Of a DNA stretch of 64,000 nt, positions 6,351 through 38,909 are shown piece by piece; the first letter of the stretch is position 1, and each line of letters begins with the position of its first letter. Source of the stretch: Balanoglossus misakiensis (Eukaryota > Animalia > Hemichordata). The notes beneath the pieces are model-generated. The model made no database searches. It saw only the letters and a list, made by a program, of their open reading frames with translations, and had not been told where the DNA came from. The DNA is taken from NCBI GenBank assembly GCA_040954595.2, contig CM082593.2, positions 9,619,200 to 9,683,199 of the forward strand, in the 5' to 3' direction. The translations under genes and the position numbers were made by a program.

Positions 6351-6945
6351 GTGCATGCTTTTGCAGAGTGCTTTGGTTGGTAAAGCCAGAGAGGTTTACA
6401 TACAATTGTCAGTTGAGCAAGCTTCTGATTATAACACTGTTAAAGAATTAATACTTAAGGGCTACGAGTTGGTCCCGGAAGCTTACCGTCAGAAGTTTCG
6501 AGATTGTGAGAAAGCAAGGGATCAAACTTATGTTGAATTCGCTCGAACAAAAGAGCAGCTGTTTGACCGTTGGTGTTTTTCTGAGAAGGTTGATGATAAA
6601 TTTGAAAAGCTACGACAGCTTGTCTTGATTGAAGAGTTCAAAAAATGTATACATGGGGATATCAGAACATTTATCGGGGAACAAAAAGCAGTAACGTTGG
6701 ACGTTGCTTCACGTTTGGCCGATGATTATTCATTGATTCATAAAACACAGGTTGTCAACAAACCATCCCAGTCATTTTCATATAGAAATAACACAGGGAA
6801 ATTTAACTCGCTGTCTCCAAAAGATAGTCAGTTTTCGTACAAATCAAATAGCAGTTCACAAAGTTCCCGTGTGAACTCAAAGCCTACCGATGTCAAGCCA
6901 CAAGTTCCCCCTACTGGAAGGCATTTTGGTACCATCACTTGTCAT
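6351..6945 (+). pseudogene. Internal fragment of a Ty3/Gypsy (Gmr1-like) gag with a SCAN-like capsid domain
   Basis: LLQSALVGKA...YELVPEAYRQKFR...QTYVEFARTKEQLFDRWC...LRQLVLIEEFK...LADDY is typical of this gag class. The fragment ends at the start of a zinc knuckle (ITCHF). Both ORF ends are satellite-derived. Confidence 0.85.
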
Positions 6946-9900: not shown

Positions 9901-10594
9901 AGCGAAGAAATTTTGAACTTTCGCAAAGTCGAAAAATTTTAATTTTTTGATGGTTTTCATGAGCTGTAAACCATAATTTTTTTCAAGAAAATTATCTTTT
10001 TAGGATGATTTTCATGAGCTATAACCCATGATTTTTTTCAAAAAAGTGAAGAAATTTAGAAATTTCGCAAGGTCGAAAAATTGTAATTTTTTGATGGTTT
10101 TCATGAGCTGTAACCCATTATTTTTTTTTCCAAAAAGTGAAGAAATTTAGAAATTTCGCAAAGTCGAAAAATTGTTATTTTTGGTTCAAAAATGTGATGA
10201 GATGTTGAACTTTCGCAAAGTCGAAATATTGTCATTTTGGACGATTTTCATGACTCATGATTTTTTTTCAAAAAAGTGAAGGAATTTTGAATTTTCGCAA
10301 AGTCTAAAAACAGTCATTTTTGGACGATTTTCAGGACCTATAACCCGTTATTTTCTTCAAAAAATGAAGAAATTTTGAATTTTCGCAAAGTCGAAAAATT
10401 CTCATTTTTGGATGATGTTCATTAGCTATAACCCATGATTTTTTTCTTCAAAAATGTGAAGAAAATTTGAACTTTCGCAATGTGGACAAATTGTCATTTT
10501 TGGATAATTTTCATGAGCTATAACCCATGATTTTTTTCTTTTGAACTTTATGAAGGTAACCCATAATTTTTTTCAAGAAAACGAAGAAATTTTG

Positions 10595-11499
10595 AACTTG
10601 AAAACCGCTGCGCGTATCACCTCAATATTAGGTGTGTAGGTGCAGGCTGGGCTGTAGATGGGAGTTTGTCCAAACGAAGTTGCCAGGCCCAAAAATATGC
10701 AAATATGCTTGTAAAATGTGAAATTGATCAAAACTCTGTAAGTCAGCAACTACTGGTCAGATTGCTTTGAAAATTAGTATGTATGTACCTTATGTCAACC
10801 TCACACCGACCTGTAAGTGTTAAGTTGATATCATGGATGTTTTATTTTTTATGAATTTTTTAGTCTTTTTATTAAATTTATACCTTTACTTATACCTCTA
10901 TTGTTAAGCTATGTCCACGTCTTATTGTGGAATTCTGGTCTGTGCAATAGTCCTGTACAGTGACTGTCTATTGGTCAGTGAGCACAATGGGGCCAAAATA
11001 AAAGGTAAATTTTTGGGCTCACCTGTAACACCTGCTTAACACATTAATTATGTGCATACCTAATTCCGGGCTAACTAATAAGGCTAGAGGTTTCGTTCTT
11101 GTGGGACATGGACCAGTATAGGGTCAAAATTTCTTGCCCAAATTTTGCATGACCTCAGGTGACTTTTGACCTACTTTATCATATCTTGGCATCCAGAGCA
11201 GGTACAGACTTCGCGTTTGGAGGGTTGGGACTAAAATTGAAAAGCCAAAATTGGGGGTCACCTGTGACACCTGCATATCTCATTAATTATGTGCATACCT
11301 AATTCCAGGCTAACCAATAGGGCTATAGGTTTGGTTTTTGTTGAACATTGACCAGTATAGGGTCAAAATTTCTTGCCCAAATTTTGCATGACCTCAGGTG
11401 ACCTTTGACCTACTTTTCCATATCTTTGCATCCAGAGCAGATATGCTTATTGCTATGTTGCTATGTCCTCAAATGGGACCACAGTGTCCTTGACGCTAT
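10595..11499 (+). mobile_element. Helentron-associated non-autonomous element (HINE/DINE-1-like), family A, 5'-truncated
   Basis: Matches the 38910 copy from AACTTGAAAACCGCTG onward. Contains ~2 239-bp units and ends AAATGGGACC-ACAGTGTCCTTGACGCTA-TTTTT. Confidence 0.8.
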
Positions 11500-12400
11500 T
11501 TTTTTAAAAAGTGAAGACATTTTGAACTTTCGCAAAGTCTAAAAATAGTCATTTTTGAACAATTTTCAGGACCTATAACCTATAACCCATGATTTTTTTT
11601 CAAAAATGTGAAAGTATTTTGAACTTTCGCAAAGTCGAAATATTGTCATTTTTTGATGATTTTCAAGAGCTAAAATCCATGATTTTTTTCAAAAAAGTGA
11701 AGACATTTTGAACTTTCGCAAAGTCGAAAAATTGTAATGTTTTGATGGTTTTCATGAGCTGTAACCCATGACTTTTTTCAAAAAAGCGAAGAAATTTTGA
11801 ACTTTCGCAAAATCGAAAAATTGTAATTTTTTTGATGGTTTTCATGAGCTGTAACCCATGACTTTTTTCAAAAAATGAAGAAATTTTGAACTTCGCAAAG
11901 TCGAAAAATTGTAATGTTTTGATGGTTTTCATGAGCTGTAACCCATGATTTTTTTTCAAGAAAACGAAGAAATGTTGAACTTTCGCAAAGTCGAAAAATT
12001 GTTATTTTTGGATGATTTTCTCTTGAAAATCATCGAAAAATAACCCATGCTTTTTCTTCCAAAAATGTGAAGAGACGTTGAACTTTCGCAAAGTCGAAAT
12101 ATTGTCATTTTTGGACGATTTTCATTACCCATAATTTTTTTTTCAAAAAGGTGAAGAAATTTTGAACTTTCGCAAAGTCTAAAAATAGTAATTTTTGCAC
12201 GATTTTCAGGACCTATAACCCATGATTTTCTTCAAAAAAATGGAGAAATTTTGAAATTTCGCAAAGTCGTATTTTTTTTTATTTTTAGGTGAATTTTATG
12301 ACCCATGATTTTTTTCAAAAAAGTGAAGAAATTTTGAACTTTCGCAAAGTCGAAAAATTGTAATTTTCTGATGGTTTTCATGAGCTGTAACCCATTATTT

Positions 12401-13064
12401 TGTAGCGGTTGAATTATCAGTCTTCGCTATATTTCTGGGGACGTACGTAGATTGCATTGGTATAGACGCGATTTGATAATAGTTTGGGCATAGCAGAAAC
12501 TGTTCACGTGACACTTTCCCGCGCTATCCATATTTGGTAGTTAGTTTGATACTTTTCTGCGAGTTTCTATTGGCTGACATGCCTTGTTTTCGTTGTTGAG
12601 TTTTGGGGCAGAGAGAGAGAGTAAGTTACCGTAATGGCGAAGTAGCAGTGTGTGCAGAGAGACGCGAGGAGAAAGGGTAAGAAACTCGAGCAAGGACTAC
12701 GAGAGCCGTCTAGCGTGGCAAGCGCTGCTCTCAAAAGCTCGTAGTTTGCCGTTCCTAGTTCCGCGGGTGGGGAACTACAGTGGGGGAAGTTGTAACCGCA
12801 TTGCTGTGTGGACTGATAGTTTTGTGATAAATCCAGGCGTGTGAGGCCGCTAACCTTGCAGCGATCTCCCGGCCGCTTGAGAACTTTCTCGACCTAGGTA
12901 TGGACTTATCATTGGTGGCAGCGAAAATCTATGAACCCAGCCGGACACGTCACACTCGTGACTGTCGGCGTATGTGAATATTGGTGACAGCAGGACGGTG
13001 TACGAAATACCCGAGCATCCCGTGGCGTCCGACGGGCTGATCCGACGGCCGGACAAACGCCACA
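12401..13064. mobile_element. Solo LTR, copy 1 (internal ~140-bp deletion)
   Basis: TGTAGCGGTT...AAACGCCACA gives TG..CA ends with a short imperfect inverted repeat. Flanks are ATTT and ATTA. Near-identical to 18874-19678. Confidence 0.8.
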
Positions 13065-13203: not shown

Positions 13204-16200
13204 ATAGCGTCAAGGACACTGTGGTCCCATTTGATGACATAGCACATAGCAACATAGCAATAAGCATATCTGCTCTGGATGCCAAGATATTGAAAAGTAG
13301 GTCAAAGGTCACCTGAGGTCATGCAAAATTTGGGCAAGAAATTTTGACCTTATACTGGTCCATGTTCAATAAAAACCAAAACTATAGCCTTATTGGTTAC
13401 CTTGGAATTAGGTTTGCACATAATAAATGAGATATGCAGGTGTCACAGGTGACCCCCAATTTTGGCTTTTCAATTTTAGTGCCAACCCTCCAAACGCTAA
13501 GTCTGTACCTGCTCTGGATGTCAAGATATGGTAAAGTAGGTGAAAGGTCACCTGAGGTCATGCAAAATTTGGGCAAGAAATTTTGACACTATACTGGTCC
13601 ATGTTCAACAAAAACCAAACCTATAGCCTTATTGGTTAGCCTGGAATTAGGTATGCACATAATTAATGAGATATGCAGGTGTCACAGGTGACCCCCAGAA
13701 TTGGCTTTTCAATTTTAGTCCCAACCCTCCAAACGCAAAGTCTGTATCTGCTCTGGATGCCAAGATATGATAAAGTAGGTCAAAGGTCACCTGAAGTCAT
13801 GCAAAATTTGGGCAAGAAATTTTGACCTTATACTGGTCCATGTTCAATAAAAACCAAAACTATAGCCTTATTGGTTACCTTGGAATTAGGTATGCACATA
13901 ATTAATGAGATATGCAGGTGTCACAGGTGACCCCCAAGTTTGGCTTTTCAATTTTAGTGCCAACCCTCCAAACGCTAAGTCTGTACCTACACTGGATGCC
14001 AAGATATGGTAAAGTAGGTCAAATATCACCTGAGGTCATGCAAAATTTTGGCAAGAAATTTTGACCCTATACTGGTCCATGTTCAACAAAAACCAAACCT
14101 ATAGCCTTATTGGTTAGCCTGGAATTAGGTATGCACATAATTAATGAGATATGCAGGTGTCACAGGTGACCCCCAGTTTTGGCTTTTAAATTTTAGTCCC
14201 AACCCTCCAAACACAAAGTCTGTACCTGCTCTGGATGCCAAGATATGATAAAGTAGGTCAAACGTCACCTGAGGTCATGCAAAATTTGGGCAAGAAATGT
14301 TGACCCTATACTGGTCCATGTTCAATAAGAACCAAAACTATAGCCTTATTGGTTAGCGTGGAATTAGGTATGCACATAATTAATGAGATATGCAGGTGTC
14401 ACAGGTGACCCCCAATTTTGGCTTTTCAATTTTAGTCCCAACCCTTCAAACGCTAAGTCTGTACCTGCTCTGGATGCCAAGATATGGTAAAGTTGGTCAA
14501 AGGTCACCTGAGGTCATGCAAAATTTGGGCAAGAAATTTTGACCCTATACTGGTCCATGTTCAACAAAAAACAAACCTATAGCCTTATTGGTTAGCCTGG
14601 AATTAGGTATGCACATAATTAATGAGATATGCAGGTGTCACAGGTGACCCCCAATTTTGGCTTTTCAATTTTAGTCCCAACCCTCCAAACGCCAAGTCTG
14701 TACCTGCTCTGGATGCCAAGATATGGTAAAGTTGGTCAAAGGTCACCTGAGGTCATGCAAAATTTGGGCAAGAAATGTTGACCCTATACTTGTCCATGTT
14801 CAACAGAAACCAAACCTATAGCCTTATTGGTTAGCCTGGAATTAGGTATGCACATAATTAATGAGATATGCAGGTGTCACAGGTGACCCCCAATTTTGGC
14901 TTTTCAATTTTAGTCCCAACCCTCCAAACGCCAAGTCTATACCTGCTCTGGATGCCAAGATATTGAAAAGTAGGTCAAAGGTCACCTGAGGTCATGCAAA
15001 ATTTGGGCAAGAAATTTTGACCTTATACTGGTCCATGTTCAATAAAAACCAAAACTATAGCCTTATTGGTTACCTTGGAATTAGGTATGCACATAATTAA
15101 TGAGATATGCAGGTGTCACAGGTGACCCCCAAGTTTGGCTTTTCAATTTTAGTGCCAACCCTCCAAACGCTAAGTCTGTACCTACACTGGATGCCAAGAT
15201 ATGGTAAAGTAGGTCAAATATCACCTGAGGTCATGCAAAATTTTGGCAAGAAATTTTGACCCTATACTGGTCCATGTTCAACAAAAACCAAACCTATAGC
15301 CTTATTGGTTAGCCTGGAATTAGGTATGCACATAATTAATGAGATATGCAGGTGTCACAGGTGACCCCCAGTTTTGGCTTTTAAATTTTAGTCCCAACCC
15401 TCCAAACACAAAGTCTGTACCTGCTCTGGATGCCAAGATATGATAAAGTAGGTCAAACGTCACCTGAGGTCATGCAAAATTTGGGCAAGAAATGTTGACC
15501 CTATACTGGTCCATGTTCAATAACAACCAAAACTATAGCCTTATTGGTTAGCGTGGAATTAGGTATGCACATAATTAATGAGATATGCAGGTGTCACAGG
15601 TGACCCCCAATTTTGGCTTTTCAATTTTAGTCCCAACCCTTCAAACGCTAAGTCTGTACCTGCTCTGGATGCCAAGATATGGTAAAGTTGGTCAAAGGTC
15701 ACCTGAGGTCATGCAAAATTTGGGCAAGAAATTTTGACCCTATACTGGTCCATGTTCAACAAAAAACAAACCTATAGCCTTATTGGTTAGCCTGGAATTA
15801 GGTATGCACATAATTAATGAGATATGCAGGTGTCACAGGTGACCCCCAATTTTGGCTTTTCAATTTTAGTCCCAACCCTCCAAACGCCAAGTCTGTACCT
15901 GCTCTGGATGCCAAGATATGGTAAAGTTGGTCAAAGGTCACCTGAGGTCATGCAAAATTTGGGCAAGAAATGTTGACCCTATACTTGTCCATGTTCAACA
16001 GAAACCAAACCTATAGCCTTATTGGTTAGCCTGGAATTAGGTATGCACATAATTAATGAGATATGCAGGTGTCACAGGTGACCCCCAATTTTGGCTTTTC
16101 AATTTTAGTCCCAACCCTCCAAACGCCAAGTCTATACCTGCTCTGGATGCCAAGATATGGAAAAGTAGGTCAAAGGTCACCTGAGGTCATGCAAAATTTG

Positions 16201-17110
16201 GGCAAGAAATTTTGACCCTATACTGGTCCATGTTCAACAAAAACCAAACCTATAGCCCTATTGGTTAGCCTGGAATTATGTATGCACATAATTAATGAGA
16301 TATGCAGATGTCACAGGTGACCCATATTTTGGCTTTTCAATTTTAGTCCCAACCCTCCAAACGCCAAGTCTGTACCTGCTCTGGATGCCGAGATATAGGA
16401 AAGTAGGTCAAAGGTCACCTGAGGTCGCCCAAAATTTTGGCAAGAAATTTTGACCCTATACTGGTCCATGTCCCACAAGAACGAAACCTCTAGCCCTATT
16501 AGTTAGCCCGGAATTAAGTATGCACATAATTAATGTGTTAAGCAGGTGTTACAGGTGAGCCCAAAAATTTGCCTTTTATTTTGGCCCCATTGTGCTCACT
16601 GACCAATAGACAGTCACTGTACAGGACTATTGCACAGACCAGAATTCCACAATAAGATGTGGACATAGCTTAACCATAGAGGTATAAGTAAAGTTATAAA
16701 TTTAATAAAAAGACTAAAAAATTCATAAAAAATAAAACATCCATGATATCAACTGAACACTTACAGGTCGGTGTGAGGTTGACATAAGGTACAAGCATAC
16801 TAATTTTCAAAGCAATCTGACCAGTAATTGTTGACTTGCAGAGTTTTGATCAATTTCACATTTTACAAGCTAATTTGCATATTTTTGGGCCTGGCAACTT
16901 CGTTTTGACAAACTCCCATCTACAGTCCTGCCTGCACCTACACATCTAATATTGAGGTGATACGTGCAGCGGTTTTCAAGTTTTTGATGTGGACGGACAT
17001 ACAGACATTCATCCATACATACATACATCCATCCATCCATCCATACATACATACAGACGCAACCCATCCCATAAGGTCCCATGGTATATAGGCCTATACC
17101 AATGGGACCT
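13204..17110 (-). mobile_element. HINE family A, full length, with ~14 internal 239-bp units
   Basis: Read on the minus strand: 5' hairpin AGGTCCCATTGGTATAGGCCTATATACCATGGGACCT, (GTAT/GGAT)n microsatellite, tandem array, 3' subTIR AATGGGACC plus stem-loop AGTGTC-CTT-GACGCT. Inserted in an A/T run with no TSD. Confidence 0.85.
13270..16560 (+). repeat. 239-bp tandem array inside the HINE, with a 5-mer (1195-bp) higher-order duplication
   Basis: TCACAGGTGACCCC occurs at 13443, 13682, 13921 and onward. The diagnostic variant CCTACACTGG occurs at 13986 and 15181. Confidence 0.93.
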
Positions 17111-17493: not shown

Positions 17494-18333
17494 CATTTCA
17501 TTTTATTTCATTTCATAGAACTGCTGATGGATAAAAACTTTTCCTATGACGTTCTGATTTTGTTGCAATTGAGCGGTAACGCTTGCCTGATTGCAAAAGT
17601 GAAAACTGATGAAAGGCAGGATGAGAAGAATCGGAGAGTATAGACTTTGTTTTCTTGTGCATCCTAGATCTGTATAGGTCATCTAATTGAGGCAGGTTTA
17701 CACCAATAATGCGCTCAGCAGAACGTATTACTCTGTTTAATAGACGGCGGTCTCCAACAGTTGAACTCCCGTACCAGACAGCAATGGAGACTGTCAACAC
17801 ACCCTCGACAACTGCCCGATAAAATTTTATCAGGAGATCCCTGCTAAGACCGAAGCCCGCCAGCCCTCGTAGAAAGAACAATCGTAGCTGAGCTTTCTGA
17901 ACACAATGCTCGACGTGCGCCTGCCAGGTTAAATCACTAGAGATGTGGATGTCGAGGAATTTAAAGGTGTCAACTATCTCGACATCTGTACCATTGATAG
18001 ACAAAGGTGTGAGGGGGGTCTTATTCCTCCGAAAATCGATAATGATCTCCTTTGTCTTGCTAACATTTAATTCTAAGTTATTGGCAGCACACCACATCAC
18101 CAATTCATCAACCTGGCGGCGATAATTGATCTCATTTTCGTCAATCAGCCCAGCAACAGTTGTATCATCTGCAAATTTAATAGTGAGACAGTTTTCAAAC
18201 CACGATATGCAATCCGAAGTCATTAGAGAATAAAGCAATGGAGACAGGGCACAACATTGTGGTGCACCTGTATTCAAAACCAGTGTTTTAGAATATCGTG
18301 AACCTATTCTGACCATCTGTGGTCGGCCTGTAA
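17494..18333 (-). mobile_element. 5'-truncated non-LTR retrotransposon (Rex1/Babar-like), C-terminal RT region, copy 1
   Basis: NTGAPQCCALSPLLYSL, KFADDTTVAGLI, NNLELNVSKTKEIIIDFRR and DUF1891-like KAQLRLFFLR...FYRAVVE..LT.SIAVWYG motifs. (GAAAT)n-type 3' tail. The 3' UTR is deleted in this copy. Confidence 0.9.
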
Positions 18334-18873
18334 GAAAATTATCCAAAAATAACCCATGACTTTTTTTTCCAAAAATGTGAAGAGACGTTGAACTTTCGCA
18401 AAGTCGAAATATTGTCATTTTGGACGATTTTTATGACCCATGATTTTTTTTCAAAACAGTGAAGAAATTTTGAACTTTCGCAAAGACGAAAAATTGTCAT
18501 TTTTGGATGATTTTAATGAGCTATAACGCATGATTTTTTTCTTCAAAAATGTGAAGAAATGTTAAACTTTCGCAAAGTCGAAAAATACACATTTTTGGAC
18601 AATTTTCATGAGCTGCAGCCCAAGAAATTTCGAACTTTCGCAAAGTCGATTTTTTTTTTATTTTTGGATGATTTTCAAGAGCTCAAACCCATGATTTTGT
18701 CCCAATAATGTGAAGAGATGTTGAACTTTCGCAAAGTCGAAAAATTGTCATTTTTTGACGATTTTCATGACCTATAACCCATAATTTTTTTCTTAAAAAA
18801 TGTGAAGAAATTTTGAACTTTCGCAAAGTCGAAAAATTTTTTGATGGTTTTCATGAGCTGTAACCCATGATTT

Positions 18874-19678: not shown

Positions 19679-22600
19679 ATTTTTTTCAGGAAAACGAAGA
19701 AATTTTGAACTATCGCAATTAGGAAAAATTGTCATTTTTGGATGTTTTTCATGAGCTATAACCCATGATTTTTTTCAAAAAAGTGAAGAAATTTAGAAAT
19801 TTCGCAAAGTCGAAAAATAGCGTCAAGGACACTGTGGTCCCATTTGAGGACATAGCACATAGCAACATAGCAATAAGCATATCTGCTCTGGATGCCAAGA
19901 TATTGAAAAGTAGGTCAAAGGTCACCTGAGGTCATGCAAAATTTGGGCATAAAAATTTGACCCTATACTGGTCCATGTTCAACAAAAACCAAACATATAG
20001 CCCTATTGGTTAGCCTGGAATTAGGTATGCACATAATTAATGAGATATGAAGGTGTCACAGGTGACCCCCAATTTTGGCTTTTCAATTTTAGTCCCAACC
20101 CTCCTAACGCAAAGTCTGTACCTGCTCTGGATGCCAAGATATGATAAAGTAGGTCAAAGGTCACCTGAAATCATGCAAAATTTGGGCAAGAAATTTTGAC
20201 CCTATACTGGTCCATGTTCAATAAAAACCAAAACTATAGCCTTATTGGTTACCTTGGAATTAGGTATGCACATAATTGATGAGATATGCAGGTGTCACAG
20301 GTGACCCCCAAGTTTGGCTTTTCAATTTTAGTGCCAACCCTGCAAACGCTAAGTCTGTACCTGCTCTGGATGCCAAGATATGGTAAAGTAGGTCAAATAT
20401 CACCTGAGGTCATGCAAAATTTTGGCAAGAAATTTTGACCCTATACTGGTCCATGTTCAACAAAAATCAAACCTATAGCCTTATTGGTTAGCCTGGAATT
20501 AGGTATGCACATAATTAATGAGATATGCAGGTGTCACAGGTGACCCCCAGTTTTGGCTTTTAAATTTTAGTCCCAACCCTCCAAACACAAAGTCTGTACT
20601 TGCTCTGGATGCCAAGATATTGAAAAGTAGGTCAAAGGTCACCTGAGGTCATGCAAAATTTTGGCAAGAAATTTTGACCCTATACAGGTCCATATTCAAC
20701 AAAAACCAAACCTATAGCCTTATTGGTTAGCCTGGAATTAGGTATGTACATAATTAATGAGATATGCAGGTGTCACAGGTGATCCCCAATTTCGGCTTTT
20801 CAATTTTAGTGCCAACCCTCCAAACGCTAAGTCTGTACCTGCTCTGGATGCCAAGATATGGTAAAGTAGGTCAAAGGTCACCTGAGGTCATGCAAAATTT
20901 AGGCAAGAAATTTGGACCCTATACTGGTCCATGTTCAACAGAAACCAAACCTATAGCCTTATTGGTTAGCCTGGAATTAGGTATGCACATAATTAATGAG
21001 ATATGCAGGTGTCACAGGTGACCCCCAATTTTGGCTTTTCAATTTTAGTCCCAACCCTCCAAACGCCAAGTCTGTACCTGCTCTGGATGCCAAGATATGG
21101 TAAAGTTGGTCAAAGGTCACCTGAGGTCATGCAAAATTTGGGCAAGAAATTTTGACCCTATACTGGTCCATGTTCAACAAAAACCAAACCTATAGCCCTA
21201 TTGGTTAGCCTGGAATTATGTATGCACATTATTAATGAGATATGCAGATGTCTCAGGTGACCCATATTTTGGCTTTTCAATTTTAGTCCCAACCCTCCAA
21301 ACGCCAAGTCTGTACCTGCTCTGGATGCCGAGATATAGGAAAGTAGGTCAAAGGTCACCTGAGGTCAGCCAAAATTTTGGCAAGAAATTTTGACCCTATA
21401 CTGGTCCATGTCCCACAAGAACGAAACCTCTAGCCCTATTAGTTAGCCCGGATTTAGGTATGCACATAATTAATGTTTTAAGCAGGTGTTACAGGTGAGC
21501 CCAAAAATTTGCCTTTTCTTTTGGCCCCATTGTGCTCACTGACCAATAGACAGTGACTGTACAGGACTATTGCACAGACCAGAATTCCACAATAAGATGT
21601 GGACATAGCTTAACCATAGAGGTATAAGTAAAGTTATAAATTTAATAAAAAGACTAAAAAATTCATAAAAAAATAAAACATCCATGATATCAACTGAACA
21701 CTTACAGGTCGGTGTGAGGTTGACATAAGGTACATGCATACTAATTTTCAAAGCAATCTGACCAGTAATTGTTGACTTACAGAGTTTTGATCAATTTCAC
21801 ATTTTACAAGCTAATTTGCATATTTTTGGGCCTGGCAACTTCGTTTGGACAAACTCCCATCTACAGTCCTGCCTGCACCTACACATCAAATATTGAGGTG
21901 ATACGCGCAGCGGTTTTCAAGTTTTTGATGTGGACGGACATACAGACATACATCCATACATACATACATCCATCCATCCATCCATACATACATCCAAACG
22001 CAACCCATCCCATAAGGTCCCATGGTATATAGGCCTTTATTACACCTTACGTATTATACCATATTCGTGATTGGCTGAGACGCGCTCACGTGATATAGAA
22101 AAAAAAGTGATATAACATGGCTAGAGTTGATAAAGCCCAGTCGCGTGCGCTGATATTGCCCGCTGGGTTGTTTTGTGTTCTGCGCGCGACTTCTGCGCGT
22201 TCCAAACTGTCGTTCAATGGCTTCCTCCACGATCAGTCAACTCCCGCATCTATGGCTTCAAAGCGACACATAGGCTTAACACCTGTTCAACTGGACGATA
22301 TTTTACCACAAACGGACAGTAAATACAACAAAATCGCAACCAACAGTGCAGTATTTTCAAAATAATCTAAGTTCGAAGTAGGTATCGTATAATTCTTGGG
22401 AGATCGAGACATTTTACATTCTCAGCAACGTACGACATATGGACGCGCGTCTACGTTCTTCTATGCCTGCCTTGTATGTACGTTCAAATGTTCGGCGTAA
22501 TAAAATTAATAACACATGATAGCGAGGGCAATATCACGATTTGAAGCCTACTCTCAGGCTGGTGATCTCTGACCACAATATTGATGATACCCTCGCACTA

Positions 22601-23480
22601 CGGTCCAGGAGGCGCCCTCTCAGTTAAATTTCTGCATCCATTTGTTATTGCTCATGAATAATTCATTAGGTACAATGGCGGGTTTTTCGATCCAGCACTG
22701 CAACGGAACTAATTAATATGCAGGTGAGTGTATCTTGTAATTAACGCCAATTTCAGTGATTCCAATGAGATATGGAAGGCATATGCAATGTACGGGTTCT
22801 TTTATGTGAATAGCTGTGAATATTTCTCATGCCCTAGATCACAAAACAGCGATCTCCTGATCGGTAGTTTGGTTACTATGCAAACCTAAGCCACATAGCA
22901 ACAGTTGCATTGTGCGGATTACTCTACGATTTGGAGAGTTTTGGTGTACTTATTTTGAAAATAAAACGATACGATTTTTCTTTAATGTATAGAGTTACAT
23001 AGCTGGGATTTGGGTGAAAATTCTCACCTTTTGTTGAAATTCAACCAAGCGAAACTTGTCGAGTTGCGTGCGTGCGCTATGCGTGAACGATTGTCATTGT
23101 AAACAATGGCGCGGAGGTCGCTTTCATCAACACAGGGCAACATATTGATGGTTTTTATGATTTAACTGGGCGGTAAATTACAATTTTAAACCTAACATAT
23201 TCATTTTAGATTGTTAGAAAACAGTAATGTATTGGAAAAATGGCTAAGAAATAATTAATAAAAAAACGGAACCTGAGAGAAAATGAACGCTTGGGGGCTT
23301 ACATTGACCTATGATGTACGCATGTACACCCTGTGATGTGCTGTTGATGTTGACATATATTTAAACTTAAGCTCATACCATATTTAAATAAACAAAATAG
23401 TCTCAACAGGTGTATGTCACTCTAATTCTGTTTCAGGCAGTTTTACCAACATATATTAATCAAAAGAAATACTGGTAAGA

Positions 23481-23855
23481 ATGCCTCACATTAAGAAGAG
23501 AAAGAGTAATTTTGACATTGGACGATGGGCAGTTGAAAAAAAGATATCTAAACTGATAGAAAAGGAAAGGCATGAACAAAATCAACATGAATCTCAGCTA
23601 GGTACCAAGCTTAAGTTAGAGAAAGTGCAGGACAATGAAATAAGAAACAGGTCAGAGTTGAAGGAGAAAAGGCGTAGGTTTGACATTGGGAAATGGGCAG
23701 CAGACAGAAAACGTAAAAATGAAGAGAGTGCTGAGATCAGGGCGAAGAGACGGAAGGTAGATGAAGGAAAGAAACTAGTTGACAAGGCCAGGAAGCGACT
23801 AGATAGACTAACTAAAAACATAAACATCTCAGTCAGGAAGCAGCCAGGTTCCACC
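23481..23855 (+). CDS. Probable first coding exon of the transposase gene (basic, NLS-rich, duplicated FDIG(R/K)WA motif)
   Basis: ATG at 23481 follows an acceptor (TTTCAG, 23436). Donor GTGAGG at 23856 gives a phase-0 join to acceptor TAACAG (24196), in frame with the 637-aa ORF. The alternative donor at 23861 is out of frame. Confidence 0.55.
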
Positions 23856-24196
23856 GTGAGGTATGTTTTGTTTTAATTATGATTTGCATAACAGGTTTGA
23901 GATATTTTTGCTTGCTATTGTGAAGTTTGTGTCACACAGTATACTATGATGTTGTGACATGCTAAGGGAAATTTATATTTCTTGTGAATTTTTCTTTAGT
24001 GACGATGATTTAATCAATTTTACTTACAACTGTAATTGCCACATAATTAGTGTTCATTCCATTAAAATGCTTTACACACACAAACACACACACATACACA
24101 GAATAATACCAGTTTGATTGTCCACAGAAACTGGCAAGTCTCTCATATTTGTCACAATTAACCTGGGTGACATATTTTCTTTTTCATGTATAACAG

Positions 24197-26227
24197 AACA
24201 CATGTCATTCATCAACTGCCAAGAAAAAGCACTGGGTTAAGAAGAGCAGTGAAGTTCATCCATGTAACAGTGAGTGCCTGACAGTTACCAAACCAGTTCA
24301 AAATAACCGCCGAGTGAAGACACTACAGGTAGCTGCTGGTATACATCAGTCGTCAACAGAGACTGAAAATGCTACTGGTAATACATTAAATCCTCAGAAG
24401 GCTGTATTAGATGGTCTGTGGTTTACACTGATCAATTCAGTCACTCCTGGAGAGATGGAAAAATACCTCTCAACTTCATCTAAATTTTCTAACATAATTA
24501 TGCCATCATTATTGCAAAAATCCATTTCTAAATTCGAAAACAGTGAAAATAACCTCATCAGGAGTGTCAGAGTTGTTTATCAGAATGGAGTATTGTCAAG
24601 GCGAAAGTACAATGCCATTCGTAACAGTGAACTGCAGTCCATTTCTCAGTTAAAACAACCTAGGAGTGTACTGCAATTTCACCATGGATGTAAAATTCCA
24701 AGGTTATTAACCTATAATAAGGTTGTTCACTATGTGCGTAATTTAGATATTGGTGACCTGCAACCTGTGATAGATAATGGGAGAGTAGTTGGTATGTACA
24801 GAAATGTAGAGGAGATGCTTCTGAAAATGGCAGACCTTTACACATTGTTGAATAAGGAACACCACCCTGGAATTTTGAACTGGTTTGGCAAGCCAGAGGG
24901 TGTGTTCCAAATTGCCCTCGGTGCTGATGGGGCACCATTTGGTAAATATGGGCAAGCAACTGCTTGGTTAGTTAGCTTTGTAAATGTATGCCATAGAGTA
25001 GCCAGTCCAGATGATAACTTTCTCCTGCTAGGAGCAAATTTGAAAGAGGAACACCCAATATTAATTGAATATGCAGCCTCACTAAGCAGACAGCTTGAGG
25101 TCATTGAAAGCAAAACATATGTAATAAATGACCTCCAGGTAAGGTTTGAGGTGTCCCTTCTACCCTTTGACCAAAAAGGTCTTGCATGTATGTCAGGGGA
25201 ACTGTCAAATGCAGCACAGTTTTTCAGCTCTTTTGCCACTGTTTCTAAGGGTACAATAGATGTTATAGGGGCAGATATAGGTCCTAGAAGTAAATGGAAA
25301 GAGTGGGGATATCCAAAAAGAATAACAGATGCTGAAGCAGTAGCAAATTTCAAATCGACTTCGGCAAAAAAGGCCAAAAAGGGTGATATAGTTCGATCAA
25401 AAGTGACAAGCTTCATTGCAAGTAGGAATTCAAGACAGGAGTTTCTTCCACCACTCGGAAAATATATTCAACATGCAAAGATTGAGCCTCTTCATCTCAA
25501 AAATAATGCATGGCAGTACTTTTTTCAAAGGTTGTTGACTGATGCTGTTGCCAAAACTGACCAGAGTGCTGTTGATAAAGGGGTAACATTGGAAAAGCTG
25601 CCAAGTGACTCCTGTCTGTACAATTTTCTCTATGCTGTAAAATACAAGGTAAGAGCAGGAAAGTTGTATAATCAAATTGTGAAATACTTCAATGAAAATA
25701 AGGTAAGTAAAAACATGCAAGCAGTGAAAGTACATCGATTCACTGGCGAGGAATCTAGAAAGGTTGCTTGGTCTTTCATGTCCCTCATCAATGCATTGAG
25801 TACACCTAATGAAAAGCCACATGTAAAAGCCAGATTGGCACTCCTGACATATATTGGTATTCTTCTGAGAGATATCACATCCTTGTGCTCAAGATTCCGT
25901 ATCAGTGAGAGTGATATCACAGTGTTGAGACAGAAGTGCAGGTGGTATTTTAATCTTCATTCCTTGTTTCTCACTGTAAATAACACGGTGTGGCACATAG
26001 GATATGCTTTGCCTAAACACATATGTGAAATTTATGAGAAATTTAACATGGGTCTGGGTCTGAATACAATGGAGGGGAGAGAGGCAAAACACCAACGCCT
26101 TCTCGAGTACAGCCACAATTCTACACCCCAGAATAGATGGCGTCTTATATTTAGACATGAATATGTATTGCTGTACTGGCTTCGAATGCAAGATCCTTAT
26201 TCAGATAATTCGTGGTCAGGGAGATAG
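24197..26227 (+). CDS. RAG1/Transib-like DDE transposase, main exon
   Basis: Frame is open from 24197. Ordered motifs ALGADGAP (D ~24926), LPFDQKGL..MSGEL (D ~25169), EPLHLKNNA (~25484), VWHIGY and GLNTMEGREAKH (E ~26081) parallel RAG1 SCDG, GYDEK, DALHCDIGNA, YFHK and ASEGNES. Confidence 0.8.
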   Translation, partial: NTCHSSTAKKKHWVKKSSEVHPCNSECLTVTKPVQNNRRVKTLQVAAGIHQSSTETENATGNTLNPQKAVLDGLWFTLINSVTPGEMEKYLSTSSKFSNIIMPSLLQKSISKFENSENNLIRSVRVVYQNGVLSRRKYNAIRNSELQSISQLKQPRSVLQFHHGCKIPRLLTYNKVVHYVRNLDIGDLQPVIDNGRVVGMYRNVEEMLLKMADLYTLLNKEHHPGILNWFGKPEGVFQIALGADGAPFGKYGQATAWLVSFVNVCHRVASPDDNFLLLGANLKEEHPILIEYAASLSRQLEVIESKTYVINDLQVRFEVSLLPFDQKGLACMSGELSNAAQFFSSFATVSKGTIDVIGADIGPRSKWKEWGYPKRITDAEAVANFKSTSAKKAKKGDIVRSKVTSFIASRNSRQEFLPPLGKYIQHAKIEPLHLKNNAWQYFFQRLLTDAVAKTDQSAVDKGVTLEKLPSDSCLYNFLYAVKYKVRAGKLYNQIVKYFNENKVSKNMQAVKVHRFTGEESRKVAWSFMSLINALSTPNEKPHVKARLALLTYIGILLRDITSLCSRFRISESDITVLRQKCRWYFNLHSLFLTVNNTVWHIGYALPKHICEIYEKFNMGLGLNTMEGREAKHQRLLEYSHNSTPQNRWRLIFRHEYVLLYWLRMQDPYSDNSWSGR

Positions 26228-26447
26228 CGAGTGTAAATCTTGTGTTAAATATATCCCTGACAAATATTATAATGACCCTTCCCTCTGTTTCTGTGGGAAT
26301 GAGAAACAGACTAACACACAGTCCTGCCAAATGTGTACAAGTGATTTTATGGCAGAAATAAAAAAATCTGCCATCAGTGGTAAGATTACAAATATGCTAA
26401 AAAAAAATGAAGTAAAGGTGTGTTCCTGCTTGAAACTCTGTATGTGA
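26220..26447 (+). CDS. Frameshifted C-terminal tail of the transposase with a Cys cluster
   Basis: The overlapping frame reads YIPDKYYNDPSLCFCGNEKQTNTQSCQMC...IKKSAISGKI right after the main ORF stop. AATAAA signals follow at ~26614 and ~26638. Confidence 0.55.
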   Translation, partial: GDSECKSCVKYIPDKYYNDPSLCFCGNEKQTNTQSCQMCTSDFMAEIKKSAISGKITNMLKKNEVKVCSCLKLCM

Positions 26448-26990
26448 TTGTTGTAAATATGGACTTGTGACTTTTATAATACATCATGTATGATGTAATA
26501 TGCTGAAAGTAATGTGTTAAGCAGTTGCCTGAATCAGCTTTGTTGTTTTGGCAAATACCTTTGTCACTTCTATGTCTATGACTTCAGAATGAGAATTAGA
26601 AATGATATGAAAATAATAAAGTATAGAAATATGTTGAAATAAATATCAAGTGTTTCCTATATACAGCTATGTAATTATTTTCATGATTTTTTACCATGTA
26701 GGTGTTCAACGAATGAAATATGGTATACTTTGTTTCTTATACACATGCCTTTTATGTATATATAGCAAGATATTAACATTATGATAATCAATGAAATAAA
26801 GACATCAGAATGAATCAAATGCACTGTTTCTTTATTTGTGTGTGAATTTTGGAATGCATACATAAAAAAAAATTAAATTATGAAATTCAATGCACCTGGG
26901 GAATAATTCTGAAATAAATAAGAAATTAAATTCAATAAGTGCAGGAAATGTCAAGTCCCAACAGCAACAGTTAACACCAGGTAAGTTCCA

Positions 26991-27604
26991 TCATAGGTGT
27001 TGTGGCACACCATGCTTATTCCAGCATCCGAAGTGGAAGTGTATAGTTGTTGTTTCCATGGACTTCCTATACCTGATAATTAGGGGCTTCTCATCTGTAC
27101 ACACCACTGCAACCCTTTGACCCCTGCATTCCTTGAATAAAAGCTGCTGGTTGTCATAGCGATCTCCTTTGCCTAACACATAGTTGACCTTGTTGATCCA
27201 AGTGAACCTCAGGGTTACCGTACCAGGGGTCTCCTTCTCATCTATACCCATCGAATTACGCGCAGCATACAGCTGAATGATATTAAAAACTTCACTAGGA
27301 ATGTTCCTACTAAAGGTGCCTTTCCAGGGATTTCGAAGGGAACTCGATGGTTTCATCTTCTGCTTCAAGATTGACCGCCAATGTGCCATCTCACGCTCAA
27401 ACATAGGATAAAGGGGTATCTGCATAAACCTCGTTTTATCTGGTGTGTCATGCTTCTTGGCAGCAACATCAACGGCAGCGTCAATGTCATAAAAAAACTA
27501 TGCAAATTGATGTTACCGAAGGTTTTCCTCCGTAATAGTTGAAACTTGGCCTGGCGTAGCTTTTGTTTTACGACCTTGGTTGTTTTGATCATGGGCGCCG
27601 CCAT
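26991..27604 (-). CDS. Second, convergent transposon gene, ~204 aa, unknown function; one frameshift in a T7 run
   Basis: ATG at 27604 in AAGATGGCGGC context, ~105 bp inside the right TIR. One extra T at ~27491-27497 fuses MAAPM..NLHSFF to YDIDAAVD..TRFMQIPLYP..HFGCWNKHGVPQHL. Minus-strand AATAAA near 26831. Confidence 0.6.
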
Positions 27605-29089
27605 CTTGTATACCGGTTGCTAACAGGATGACCTCATCGGTGACCTCTATTTTACATATAAATGCTTCGCGGAATACTACTCAAAATCGGTACGCTCGTG
27701 GACCGCAGTGTCGCCTGCGGCTCGGGCATCATCAATATTATAGTCAGAGATCACCATCCCTCGTGCAGGCTTCAAATCGTGATATTGCCCTCGCTATCAT
27801 GTGTTATTATTTAAATACCAATGGGACCTAAAAATTGTCATTTTGAGATGATGTTCATCAGCTATGACCAATGATTTTTTTCAAAAAATTGAAGAAATTT
27901 TGAACTTTCGCAAAGTCGAAAAATTGTCATTTTTGGATGATTTGCATGAGCTATAACGCATGATTTTGTTCTTCAAAAATGTGAAGAAATATTGAACTTT
28001 CGCAATGTGGAAAAATTGTAATAATGCTATAACCCATGATTTTTTTCCAAAAAACGAAAAAATTTTGAACTTTCGCGAAGTCGAAAAATTGTAATTTGTT
28101 GATGGTTTTCATGAGCTGTAACCCATGACTTTTTTTAAAAAATGAAGAAATTTTGAACTTTCGCAAAGTCGAAAAATTGTTATTTTTGGATGATTTTCAT
28201 TTCATTTCATTTCATTTCATAGTTTATTCGCTAATGTATGTTTGAAAATAAAATACACCAGAAATCTCATTGGCTCGAACTCTAACAATATTAAGACATT
28301 TGCAATGTAAAAACAGGGTCAACGACACCGATAAAATACAAACACTCACTATAAAAAGTTACGAGTATCTGGCTAAAGGGTCCATCCCATTCAATTGACG
28401 GACTGCTGATGGATAAAAACTTTTCCTATGACGTTCTGATTTTGTTGCAATTGAGCGGTAACGCTTGCCTGATTGCAAAAGTGAAAACTGATGAAAGGCA
28501 GGATGAGAAGAATCGGAGAGTATAGACTTTGTTTTCTTGTGCATCCTAGATCTGTATAGGTCATCTAATTGAGAACAGTATAGAAAACATTTTCCAATTT
28601 CCGAAAAACCTCTTTTTTACATAATTACTGCTGAAAAAGTTAGAAATTTATGAAAATATTCCTTATTCTTTGCCAATTTCTAATGAAAAAATTACATAAA
28701 GGTATTCTTAGTCTCTTTCCTGCAGCTGTACAGCAGGAAAAATGCATTTTGTCATATTTTGGCTTTAAACTCAAATTAAAATTTATCTGTGAAAAAACTG
28801 AGTCTCCTTCAAAGCCACGTACATGACAGTCCTTTTGATTTTTTTCTAATGAAATTTTGTCTCCATGTTTATCATGAGTAATATTTCTATTTGCAAGTGT
28901 GTGAATTGCTTGTAAAATTTCGCCAGAAAAAACAATAGCATCAAAAAGTTAATCTGAAACCCAATATTTATTACAAGAATTGTTAGATTAATATCCGTAT
29001 CACACAAATCCGTTGGATTTCGTATGAATTTTAGGAAATAAGCACTGCTAATTGACAAATCCATATTTTGCAGCTGAAATACTTGGAAA

Positions 29090-29625
29090 AGAGTCAGTGG
29101 CATGTGAAAGCTTGGAAATTTCCAAGCACTGACAAGGGTCAGTGGTCGGAAATTTCCAGACACTCAGGGAATGTGAGAGCCTGGAAATTTCCAAGCACTG
29201 ACAAGGGTCAGTGGTCGGAAATTTCCAGACACTCAGGGAATGTGAGAGCTTAGAAATTTCCAAGCACTGACAAGGGTCAGAGGTCGGAAATTTCCAGACA
29301 CTCAGGGAATGTGAGAGCTTAGAAATTTCCAAGCACTGACAAGGGTCAGTGGTCGGAAATTTCCAGACACTCAGGGAATGTGAGAGCTTAGAAATTTCCA
29401 ATCACTGACAATGGTCAGTGGTCGGAAATTTCCGGACACTCAGGGAATGTGAGAGCCTGGAAATTTCCAAGCACTGACAAGGGTCAGTGGTCGGAAATTT
29501 CCAGACACTCAGGGAATGTGAGAGCTTAGAAATTTCCAAGCACTGACAAGGGTCAGTGGTCGGAAATTTCCAGACACTCAGGGAATGTGAGAGCCTTGAA
29601 ATTTCCAAGCACTGACAGGGTCGTG
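29090..29625 (-). repeat. 69-bp tandem array, left arm
   Basis: Unit is the reverse complement of GACCCTTGTCAGTGCTTGGAAATTTCCAGGCTCTCACATTCCCTGAGTGTCTGGAAATTTCCGACCACT; ~7-8 copies. Confidence 0.93.
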
Positions 29626-29690
29626 GTAGTCCCCCGTACAGGTCTGCGTTCTCCCGGCGTTTAATACATGGCTTCCACCACATCTCTGCA

Positions 29691-30082
29691 AGGCTCCATG
29701 GACAAAACTGATTCGTCTGAGATCCGGATCCGGACAGCAGCTTTTCGGCCGAGATTCGATTTTATCGGGGGGAATCTTTCCCCCGTCTACCCACAAATGA
29801 CTCCAAATATGATGTAATTAACTTCCGAGCCGCTCGCTTTCTGATTTTCTCTTGTGTTTACCTGTTGAGATCGCCATATTGAATACAGTGAGGTTATCTC
29901 AATGGGTAAACACAAACGTTTCAGAAAGCGAGCGGTTCGGATGTTAGAAGAAGTCAATCGTGGAGTCGGTTATAACCGGTTAGTAGACAGGGAAAGGATA
30001 TTCTCCCGATAAAATCGAATTTCGGCGAAAAGCTCTGGTACGGATCTGGACCGCAGACGCAACAGGTTTGTCTAAGGAGCCT
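29691..30082. mobile_element. Old foldback MITE in the core of the TIR element
   Basis: AGGCTCCATGGACAAA...CCGCTCGCTTTCTGA is mirrored by TCAGAAAGCGAGCGG...TTTGTCTAAGGAGCCT. Also present in copy 2 (~54283-54674). Confidence 0.55.
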
Positions 30083-30519
30083 TAGCGTCACAGTGTTCAT
30101 GACAGGCTTCGCCTACCAACTCCTCTGAGTTAGCCCATACACTAGTTGTTTATTGGGAATTGGTATTGTTTATCTGACATAATTGTTCTTTCTACTCTGT
30201 ATACAAAGTCACAACTTCACATCTACCAAATGCAGTGTTACCAAATGTCACAGTTCAAACCACTGTTTATAAAGAAGTATTGGCCATCCCGCCCCTCTCT
30301 CTTCATTCCGAACCTATTCCCAAGTGTACGCGGTACATTTGTTGGTGCCGAGACCAGGATGTCGGGCATGGAGAGAGAGAGAGAAGAACAGCAGAAGAGG
30401 CCACCGCAGTCAAATGACCAATCTCATCCGTAGGGTTGAAGATATAAACACAGGCGCAGTTCCTCAACAGATCGTTTTCCTAAAGGCCATAATTTGAAAC
30501 ATGATAGAGAAACTCAAGA

Positions 30520-31158
30520 TTTCCAAGCACTGACCCTGTCAATGCTTGGAAATTTCCAGGCTCTCACATTCCCCGAGTGTCTGGAAATTTCCGACCACTG
30601 ACCCTGTCAGTGCTTGGAAATTTCTAGGCTCTCACATTCCCTGAGTGTCTGGAAATTTCCGACCACTGACCCTTGTCAGTGCTTGGAAATTTCTAAGCTC
30701 CAACATTCCCTGAGTGTCTGGAAATTTCCGACCACTGACCCTTGTCAGTGCTTGGAAATTTCCAGGCTCTCACATTCCCTGAGTGTCCGGAAATTTCCGA
30801 CCACTGACCCTTGTCAGTGCTTGGAAATTTCCAGGCTCTCACATTCCCTGAGTGTCTGGAAATTTCCGACCACTGACCCTTGTCAGTGCTTGGAAATTTC
30901 CAGGCTCTCACATTCCCTGAGTGTCCGGAAATTTCCGACCACTGACCCTTGTCAGTGCTTGGAAATTTCCAGGCTCTCACATTCCCTGAGTGTCTGGAAA
31001 TTTCCGACCACTGACCCTTGTCAGTGCTTGGAAATTTCTAAGCTCTCACATTCCCTGAGTGTCTGGAAATTTCCGACCACTGACCCTTGTCAGTGCTTGG
31101 AAATTGCCAGGCTCTCACATTCCCTGAGTGTCTGGAAATTTCCAGACACTGACCCTTC
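30520..31158 (+). repeat. 69-bp tandem array, right arm, inverted relative to the left arm
   Basis: ~9 copies; this array explains the 23-aa periodic ORFs. Confidence 0.93.
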
Positions 31159-37137: not shown

Positions 37138-38909
37138 TTTTTATTTTTGGATGATTTTCAAGAGCTCAAACCCATGATTTTTTTCCCAATAATGTGAAGA
37201 GATGTTGAACTTTCGCAAAGTCTAAAAATAATCATTTTTGGACGATTTTCAGGACCTATAACCAATGACTTTTTTCAAAAATGTGAAGAAAATTTGATCT
37301 TTCGCAATGTGGAAAAATTGTTATTTTTGGATGATTTTCATTAGCTATAACCCATGATTTTTTTCAAAAAAGGGAAGAAATTTTGAACTTTCGCAAAGTC
37401 GAATAAATTTTATTTTTGGACGATTTTCATGAGCTGTAACTCATGATTTTTTTCAAAAAATGAAGAAATTTTGAACTTTCGCAATGTGGAAAAATTGTCA
37501 TTTTTGGATGATTTTCATTAGCTATAACCCATGATTTTTTTCAAAAAAGGGAAGAAATTTTGAACTTTCGCAAAGTCGAAAATTTTTTATTTTTGGACGA
37601 TTTTCATGATTTTTTTCAAAAAATTAAGAAATTTTGAAATTTCGCATAGTTGAAAAATTGTATTTTTGAGATGATTTTCATAAGCTATAACGCATGATTT
37701 TTTTCAAAAATGTGAAGAAATTTTCAAATTTCGCAAAGTCGAAAAATTGTCATTTTTGGACGATTTTCATGAGCTGTAACTCATGATTTTTTTCAAAAAA
37801 TGAAGAAATTTTGAACTTTCGCAGTGTGGAAAAATTGTATTTTTTTGATGATTTTCATAAGCTATAACGCATGATTTTTTTCAAAAATGTGAAGAAATTT
37901 TGAAATTTCGCAAAGTCGAAAAATTGTCATTTTTGGACGATTTTCATGAGCTGTAACTCATGATTTTTTTCAAAAAATGAAGAAATTTTGAACTTTCGCA
38001 ATGAGGAAAAATTGTACCTTTTGATGATTTTCATAAGCTATAACCCATGATTTTTTTCAAAAAGTGAAGAAATTTTGAAATTTCGCAAAGTCGAAAAAAT
38101 TGTTATGTTTGGGTGATTTTCATGACCCATGATTTTTTTCAAAAAATGAAGAAATTTTGAACTTTCGCAATGTGGAAAAATTGTCATTTTTGGATGATTT
38201 TCATGAGCTATAACGCATGATTTTTTTCTTCAAAAATGTGAAAAAATGTTGAACGTTCGCAATGTTGAAAAATTGTCATTTTGGGATGATGTTCATGGGC
38301 TATAACCCTTGATTTTTTTTCTTCAAAAATGTAAAGAAAATTTGAACTTTCGCAATGTGGAAAAATTGTCATTTTTGGATGATTTTCATTAGCTATAACC
38401 CATGATTTTTTTTCAAAAAAGTGAAGAAATTTTGAACTTTCGCAAAGTCTAAAAATAGTCATTTTTGGACTATTTTCAGGACCTATAACCCATGATTTTC
38501 TTCAGAAAATGATGAAATTTTGAAATTTCGCATAGTCGAATTTTTTTTTATTTTAGGTGATATTAATGACCCATGATTTTTTCAAAAAAGTGAAGAAATG
38601 TTGAAATTTCGCAAAGTCGAAAAATTGTCATTTTTGCATAATGTTCATGAGCTATAACCCATGATTTTTTTCTTTTGAAATTTCGCAAAGTAACTCATGA
38701 TTTTTTCAAAAAATGAAGAAATTTTGAACTTTCGCAAAGACGAAAAATTGTCATTTTTAAATGATTTTCATGAGCTATAACGCATGATTTTTTTCTTCAA
38801 AAATGTGAAAAAAGATTGAACTTTCGCAAAGTCGAAAAATACACATTTTTGGACAATTTTCATGAGCTGTAGCCCAAGAAATTTCGAACTTTCGCAAAGT
38901 CGATTTTTT

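Follow-up and report, generated by a model that had tools for sequence, protein, structure and literature searches.

Described CAC-Ended Elements and the Balanoglossus Locus

As far as the accessible text of the papers cited here goes, transposons of the CMCT clade (CACTA-Mirage-Chapaev-Transib) are defined by CA...TG termini and a target-site duplication (TSD) of 2-5 bp (PMC12730594). Among the described systems closest to the locus reported here, ProtoRAG/RAGL elements occur in corals and Ptychodera (PMC7204232, PMC9435367, PMC10462144); RAG, ProtoRAG, and HzTransib cut by nick and hairpin (PMC10462144), and the C-terminal tail (CTT) of ProtoRAG helps bind the terminal inverted repeats (TIRs) (PMC7204232). 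The TIRs of Transib resemble recombination signal sequences, with a CACAATG heptamer, a 23-bp spacer, and an A-rich nonamer (PMC1131882). RAG1 is the enzyme that shuffles antibody genes, and how a recombinase of two proteins, RAG, evolved from a one-protein Transib is still an open question. Here we describe a 5115-bp element (22596-27710) in a 64,000-nucleotide stretch of the hemichordate Balanoglossus misakiensis (assembly GCA_040954595.2, contig CM082593.2, positions 9,619,200 to 9,683,199, forward strand), hereafter the window. On balance we favor its interpretation as a cut-and-paste transposon with two convergent genes, a 3-bp TSD, and a predicted RAG1/Transib fold, whose second gene (ORF2) likely encodes a cofactor and which likely represents an undescribed CMCT lineage.

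ProtoRAG/RAGL resembles the family formed by this element and its relatives in its CAC ends, the convergent genes inside the TIRs, the RAG1-core fold (predicted here), and a Cys-rich C-terminal tail. However, the transposases share ~10% identity and no sequence-profile match; the ProtoRAG partner is the six-bladed kelch protein RAG2L, whereas a ~200-aa predicted alpha/beta protein is found here; and the TSD is 5 bp in ProtoRAG and 3 bp in this family. The ProtoRAG CTT reads Cx2Cx3GHx4C (PMC7204232), compared with CxC...CxxC here, C(2)C is absent here, and the full-length homologs inspected had no N-terminal Cys-rich fingers. Transib shares the predicted core fold (Z 21.4 to 6pqx), the order of the catalytic Asp-Asp-Glu (DDE) residues, and CAC ends; in this family a weaker second block follows at ~22-36, and its start at ~22 is nearer than the Transib nonamer. 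Transib (HzTransib, subgroups I and II) encodes one protein and mostly makes 5-bp TSDs, in contrast to the two genes and 3 bp here, and it keeps the C(2)C/H(3-4)H zinc site, of which the Cys have likely been lost wholly and the His partly here. Chapaev3 is alike in its CAC...GTG ends, 3-bp TSD, and LH motif, but its TSD is TWA between A and T, whereas none of the seven TSDs here (TCG, GAT, TAG, ATT, AGC, AAT, ATA) is TWA; C(2)C and H(4)H are both present in it, as is a Chapa zinc finger, and the accessible text describes no second gene (PMC4079192). EnSpm/CACTA shares a 3-bp TSD, a second gene, and, with the window copy, a CACT-type start. In plant EnSpm/CACTA elements the second gene is TnpA, and TnpA and TnpD lie on the same strand. 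By contrast, the ends of this family read CACGCYGG, its genes converge, and C(2)C is missing. The family appears to work like a Transib/ProtoRAG transposon, but it lies outside RAGL by its partner, tail, and TSD, outside canonical Transib by its TSD, second gene, and lack of C(2)C, and outside Chapaev3 by the sequence of its TSDs. A first-pass annotation, made from the window sequence alone, had argued that a RAG1-type core combined with a 3-bp TSD and a convergent non-kelch partner matched no named family; a 3-bp TSD by itself does not set an element apart from Transib, because two Drosophila Transibs have 3-bp TSDs according to a preprint (bioRxiv 10.64898/2026.08.26.747230), and TSD length is therefore a weak argument.

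Ends, Target Duplication, and Insertion Site

The features of the element and of the window are listed in table 1. The two ends are identical at 14 of 16 positions, and the pattern CACT[AG]CGGTCC had two sites in the whole window, both of them the element ends. The element lies at the central hairpin of a ~220-bp palindromic host repeat with 89-nt arms, which resembles a miniature inverted-repeat transposable element (MITE) and is present in high copy (read depth 1e4-1e5). In contigs assembled from sequencing runs, empty copies of this repeat had the two flanks joined by one TCG, and the joints skipped 5118 bases, that is, 5115 + 3; since the empty copies carry one TCG, the TSD is 3 bp. Loose ends behind 22596 were observed in six contigs of run X1 and five of run X2, and further joints skipped 5119-5275 bases, as variant repeat copies should. 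The three runs came from one sample, maybe the source of the window itself, and are not independent of it, but the empty copies represent different loci. The TIRs and the TCG duplication of the first-pass annotation were thereby borne out.

Table 1. Features of the element, its target, and the remainder of the window.
Feature	Position	Strand	Basis or remark
Left TIR	22596..22611	+	CACTACGGTCCAGGAG; compared with right end
Right TIR	27695..27710	-	CACTGCGGTCCACGAG on other strand, ends 27710
Left TSD, TCG	22593..22595	.	Single TCG in empty-site contigs
Right TSD, TCG	27711..27713	.	Read from window sequence
Left arm of host palindromic MITE-like repeat (target, outside transposon)	22504..22592	+	Inverted-repeat match
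Right arm of host palindromic repeat	27724..27812	-	Inverted-repeat match, 89-nt arms
First exon of transposase (125 codons; basic; RFxIGxW-like motif present twice)	23481..23855	+	Inferred splice
Putative GT-AG intron, 341 nt	23856..24196	+	In-frame join
Second exon of transposase, read in the frame of the window; predicted RAG1-like core	24197..26227	+	Open reading frame (ORF), model, alignment
Catalytic codons	D 24926-8, D 25169-71, E 26081-3; LH His 25493-5	+	Read off sequence
C-terminal CxC...CxxC tail	26210..26410	+	Out of frame in window, in frame in runs
ORF2 main frame, 168 codons + stop, basic alpha/beta protein	26991..27497	-	Homologs, profile, model
ORF2 5' part, ATG 27604, MAA start as in relatives, other frame	27498..27604	-	T7 run 27491-27497
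Satellite, 88-92 bp unit	4102-12401, 27830-28200, 32109-52716		
Satellite, 239 bp unit	13270-16558, 19883-21498		
Satellite, 69 bp unit	29102-31157, 53505-55334		
Gag-like fragment of a long terminal repeat (LTR) retrotransposon	6310-6978	+	By eye from translation
Reverse-transcriptase remnants of a long interspersed nuclear element (LINE)	17513-18430, 28359-28616	-	By eye from translations, within satellite

A larger element with the 89-nt arms as its TIRs, or alternatively a 4-bp TSD (TCGC), is very improbable. The outer palindrome arms form the longest inverted repeat of the region, and a C follows TCG on both sides, so that a 4-bp reading fits the window site and the relatives L081, L055, and L064; but that reading produces asymmetric ends and fails in L038, L051, and L071, while the outer palindrome was found empty at very high depth and the CAC ends of the relatives sit in unrelated flanks. 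The empty sites rule out the palindrome arms as the TIRs of the element, unless both arms should accompany all further host copies. A preference of the transposon for the palindrome center is possible. The element contig of run X1 begins 18 bp into the palindrome flank, and no other flank was seen.

The Transposase and Its Predicted Fold

The join of the two transposase exons is open across GT...AG borders and encodes 802 aa, in which the motifs GADG, FDQK, EPLH, and EGRE are all present. The spliced gene of ~800 aa that had been proposed thus stood as an open join, but its length proved to be cut by a frameshift. The window stop at 26225-7 is the product of this shift: relative to the window, contigs from both runs have two additional bases following 26209 and a single additional base following 26398. 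By arithmetic, the run-corrected transposase has 863 codons and ends at 26408-10, and with the frame restored in the runs' contigs the CxC...CxxC tail of the homologs is therefore included.

An AlphaFold model covering 24377-26224, with residues counted from 24377, had a predicted local distance difference test (pLDDT) score of 93.4. Foldseek ranked RAG1 first (E 5.8e-13), followed by BbRAG1L (1.3e-7), HzTransib (2.2e-7), and the P element (2.3e-3). In VIA, the model matched RAG1 residues 460-1005 with Z 25.2 and a root-mean-square deviation of 3.7 over 464 residues at 10% identity; Z was 21.9 for BbRAG1L (6b40), 21.4 for HzTransib (6pqx), and weaker, 13.8, for the P element. The same ranking was repeated over 48,161 chains without Foldseek. 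In the ESM Atlas, the neighbors of one homolog (P0007) were two cnidarian clusters, a Mucoromycota cluster (DUF1280, 16% of members), and RAG1_RNase_H clusters. The RAG1/Transib-type core read from the motif order is thus supported by the predicted fold, both against RAG1 and against the HzTransib structure. Because no PDB structure of Chapaev or EnSpm surfaced in the structure searches, the fold cannot separate Transib from these two, and the model would place the transposase in the wider CMC/Transib group, not on one branch.

The DDE residues were observed directly: in the homolog alignment D184, D265, and E569 were conserved in 100%, 99%, and 99% and the His of the LH motif in 100%. Their match to the RAG1 triad D600, D708, and E962 and to H795 rests on motif order.

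Sequence searches were far less informative. Pfam gave nothing above threshold for the transposase, exon 1, the tail, or ORF2, only sub-threshold matches; among PDB sequences, single proteins and profiles found no transposase match, with RAG1 and HzTransib absent at E<=10. The CACTA Pfam models had no match at E<=1 to the window protein or to nine homologs, and these plant-built models may miss animal EnSpm. Rfam over 22300-28000 yielded nothing useful. Relatives were found in none of 77 candidate stretches of viral contigs, and no viral structure matched at E<=0.001.

The RFxIGxW-like motif of exon 1 recurs at the N-termini of named coral homologs (e.g., P0286), and exon 1 gave weak phmmer values of E 0.002-0.03 against ~300 N-termini, with 0.015 as the best of 30 shuffles. 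Exon 1 also holds a 50-nt direct repeat, at a spacing of 168 nt, that encodes two FDIGxW motifs. In addition, its peptide resembled, at E ~1e-4 among ~300 N-termini (best of 30 shuffles, 0.015), the helix at the N-terminus of a P0146-like ORF2 clade; the likeness was to a single clade and is probably chance. A consensus splice donor, CAG/GTGAGT at 22720-22729, lies 128 bp in from the left end, and an acceptor at 23428-23437 precedes the ATG; the two point to a possible first exon without coding sequence.

Relatives, Their Ends, and Their Target Duplications

The transposase protein search returned 133 homologs, the best 120 of which were listed. Among the matches listed, the closest was from Ptychodera flava (65% identity) and the others were 30-44% identical; the other named homologs came from corals and anemones, and all were uncharacterized, unnamed, or hypothetical proteins without a precomputed Pfam domain. 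A metagenome scan found a further set of 204 relatives, and the counts of loci below rest on 80 of these. Their likeness to named coral proteins suggests that the metagenome loci are animal host DNA.

Relatives' ends begin with CACGCYGG or CACGGTGG, so that the CACTR ends described for the element hold for the window copy but not as a family signature. All of 20 ends (20/20) began with CAC; conservation extended as far as position 9, and a weaker block followed at ~22-36. Twelve loci with two ends, starting CACGCY, were picked by eye; five of them had a 3-bp TSD (GAT, TAG, ATT, AGC, AAT), compared with 6 of 132 cross pairs as a control, one had a 2-bp match, and none had 4-8 bp. A further complete element of 8542 bp with both genes intact (L081:4274-12815; ends CACGGTGGGCACAAG) has ATA on both sides and lies inside a 294-bp tandem repeat, 13 empty units of which each carry one ATA. 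The record is titled as an Anaerolineae metagenome-assembled genome, and the tandem-repeat flanks without long ORFs make animal DNA in the bin likelier. In every case in the family with a duplication of at least 3 bp, the duplication was 3 bp. Thus, the 3-bp TSD first read at a single site turned out to be a family trait.

Long internal inverted repeats, nested within the TIRs and bracketing the transposase, were seen in several relatives (L004:3155-9387, L012:589-4948, L081:5010-12500). Just beyond one right TIR, an ORF (L002:7984-8481) looked by eye like a fragment of a Polinton/A32-type packaging ATPase.

The Second Gene

ORF2 homologs were found in the loci with a best tblastn E of 3e-20, and an iterated ORF2 profile, built from the same loci in which it was counted, detected the gene in 38 of 80 loci, 37 of them on the opposite strand. 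The two-gene layout was observed across the family, with an opposite-strand ORF2 downstream of the transposase in 34/37 loci whose flank measured 1.5 kb or more, and in 19/20 whose flank measured 2.5 kb or more. In the relatives, ORF2 is a single frame, mostly of 200-240 aa, that starts with MA and has a net charge of +3 to +21. The profile search added 106 ORF2 homologs, whereas a single-sequence search gave none.

In the window copy, the ORF2 frame changes 38 codons after ATG 27604 at the T7 run 27491-27497; no indel was observed at this point in the sequencing runs, and the change is kept in the read consensus. It could be a shared mutation, a 77-nt GT-AG intron (27574-27498), or slippage. 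The 38-codon 5' part had a weak score of 1.0 bit against the N-termini of the relatives. A programmed -1 frameshift was considered but is not supported: a hairpin with a 9-bp stem follows the T7 run, but its folding z was -0.64. The tail-to-tail second gene proposed from the window is accordingly confirmed as convergent, with the amendment that its frame changes near its start.

The model of the 168-aa part (pLDDT 82) predicts helices and short strands, not a kelch propeller. Foldseek found no match to it at E<=0.001 and the ESM Atlas no usable match, which is not proof of a new fold; the best VIA Z was 4.8, with weak TBP-like rows (RNase H3 N-domain, RnlA). The non-kelch convergent partner inferred from one copy is therefore, with a predicted alpha/beta structure and a position kept in 34 of 37 loci, a trait of the family.

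Both genes are under purifying selection: the ratio of nonsynonymous to synonymous substitution rates (dN/dS) was 0.13-0.15 for the transposase (three pairs) and 0.23-0.51 for ORF2 (eight pairs, three clusters). By analogy with RAG, ProtoRAG, and HzTransib, the transposase would bind the CAC ends and cut by nick and hairpin, insertion would use a 3-nt stagger, and the basic ORF2 protein would join the transposase-DNA complex. We give about even chances to ORF2 being a cofactor in this complex, an analogue and not a homologue of RAG2. A less probable alternative is that ORF2 is a captured or regulatory passenger, such as a repressor or an anti-silencing factor, which is under selection in what is otherwise a one-protein Transib-like element. 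HzTransib-type transposases act alone, the ORF2 frame change is common to the multi-copy consensus in the host, and ORF2 is the less constrained of the two genes, all of which speak for a passenger; but across transposases that are only 35-45% identical it stays in the same place and direction and begins ~90-110 bp from the right end, and its C-terminus retains a conserved YGxWNxxGxPxH-like motif.

Zinc Site and Cysteine Tail

Of the traits of CMCT elements, the family has the CA...TG termini, a 3-bp TSD, and a DDE transposase with a predicted RAG1-like core. According to the accessible text (PMC12730594), C(2)C and H(3-4)H are common to every CMCT lineage in a Repbase-wide alignment, but here the 35 residues that follow the second D contained a CxxC in 0/121 rows, and the consensus at the expected position is Y-F/P-S-S/P-F-A/G. 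Nor did the homolog alignment show a conserved pair of Cys at any other position ahead of the E. For H(3-4)H before the E, both His were present in 41 of 97 rows; the second was conserved in 95%, and the first is Tyr in the window copy. Because no row had CxxC and both His stood in 41 of 97, the zinc site has likely been lost in this family; aromatic and small residues would then stand at the positions of the relatives' ZnC2/ZnH2 ligands. A CxC...CxxC tail was found in 80 of the 81 homologs long enough to hold it, and this tail would bind zinc and help recognize the ends, like the ProtoRAG CTT. No Cys/His cluster of the kind of the Chapa zinc finger was seen by eye in exon 1 or in seven long homolog N-termini. 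What is new is thus a family without the C(2)C motif that has been stated as common to all CMCT transposases, and with a CxC...CxxC tail of its own.

Weighing the Placement

The suggestion that the element belongs to an undescribed branch of the CMC/Transib group was supported: the predicted fold agrees with a RAG1/Transib-type core, both the 3-bp TSD and the non-kelch partner recur across the family, and the literature covered, which did not extend to Repbase Reports and most subscription journals, contained no account of this lineage. It is rather unlikely, though well worth considering, that Repbase or Dfam already lists the family, perhaps among the cnidarian entries for EnSpm, Chapaev, or Transib, and that the element is a new member of it, whether or not the two-gene layout had been recognized there. 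The family is abundant in the well-studied genomes of Acropora, Nematostella, Pocillopora, and Exaiptasia, elements with CAC...GTG ends and 3-bp TSDs are classed as EnSpm in Repbase (PMC12730594), which has merged Chapaev and Mirage into EnSpm (PMC4455052), and ORF2 has a Pfam accession, PF26709.1. On the other hand, the lack of C(2)C sets the family apart from the lineages in that Repbase-wide alignment, the 120 listed transposase homologs have neither a precomputed Pfam domain nor an informative name, and the literature search found no description.

Several observations weigh against the interpretation of an undescribed two-gene lineage. Seven of the 12 two-ended loci had no 3-bp duplication; in one subfamily, three different flanks were seen on the left and three on the right, and we therefore suspect that assemblers joined different copies, which probably explains these mismatches. 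The 12 loci are also not all independent (pairs L004/L005, L013/L028, and L050/L051). ORF2 was missing in three of 37 loci (L015, L019, L031), and its frame change in the read consensus of the subfamily would suggest that it is dispensable in cis. ORF2 identities track transposase identities (Mantel rho 0.66, 13 pairs), a correlation that mirrors shared descent and not function. PF26709.1 was precomputed on 103 of the 106 ORF2 homologs, and that protein family is thus already catalogued. In the run contigs, no second insertion site was seen in the host. Finally, contig depth is not copy number, and the depths in run X1 have to be read with this limit: 262 for the element, which forms one 5099-bp contig, 41-60 for single empty-site contigs, and 97, 116, 400, and 1506 for related subfamilies.

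These depths suggest several near-identical copies, together with sister families, in one genome. Among the 34 listed differences from the sister subfamilies, 26 fell at third codon positions (8 more were unlisted). We regard the window copy as belonging to a subfamily that spread recently, and as carrying either slight damage or assembly errors.

A bolder proposal, which we consider speculative, is that the family is a second, independent RAG-style transposon near the Transib/RAG1 root, which dropped the zinc site and took on a small, tail-to-tail non-kelch partner as a required subunit, like RAG2; the RAG1-RAG2 architecture would in that case have two separate origins, in a family ranging from cnidarians to deuterostomes. 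For the passage from one-protein Transib to two-protein RAG, the family offers a natural parallel, in which the layout is kept and a transposase of predicted RAG1 fold is paired with another kind of partner, and intact copies are at hand (L038, L055, L081). It allows tests of the contribution of a partner subunit, of what determines TSD length, and of the need for the ZnB zinc, and it would provide an identity for many coral proteins now labeled "uncharacterized", which are missed when searching by sequence.

Remainder of the Window

Outside the element, the window consists mostly of satellite arrays and retroelement remnants (table 1). In addition, a higher-order repeat of ~2.8 kb was observed around 37400-45900.

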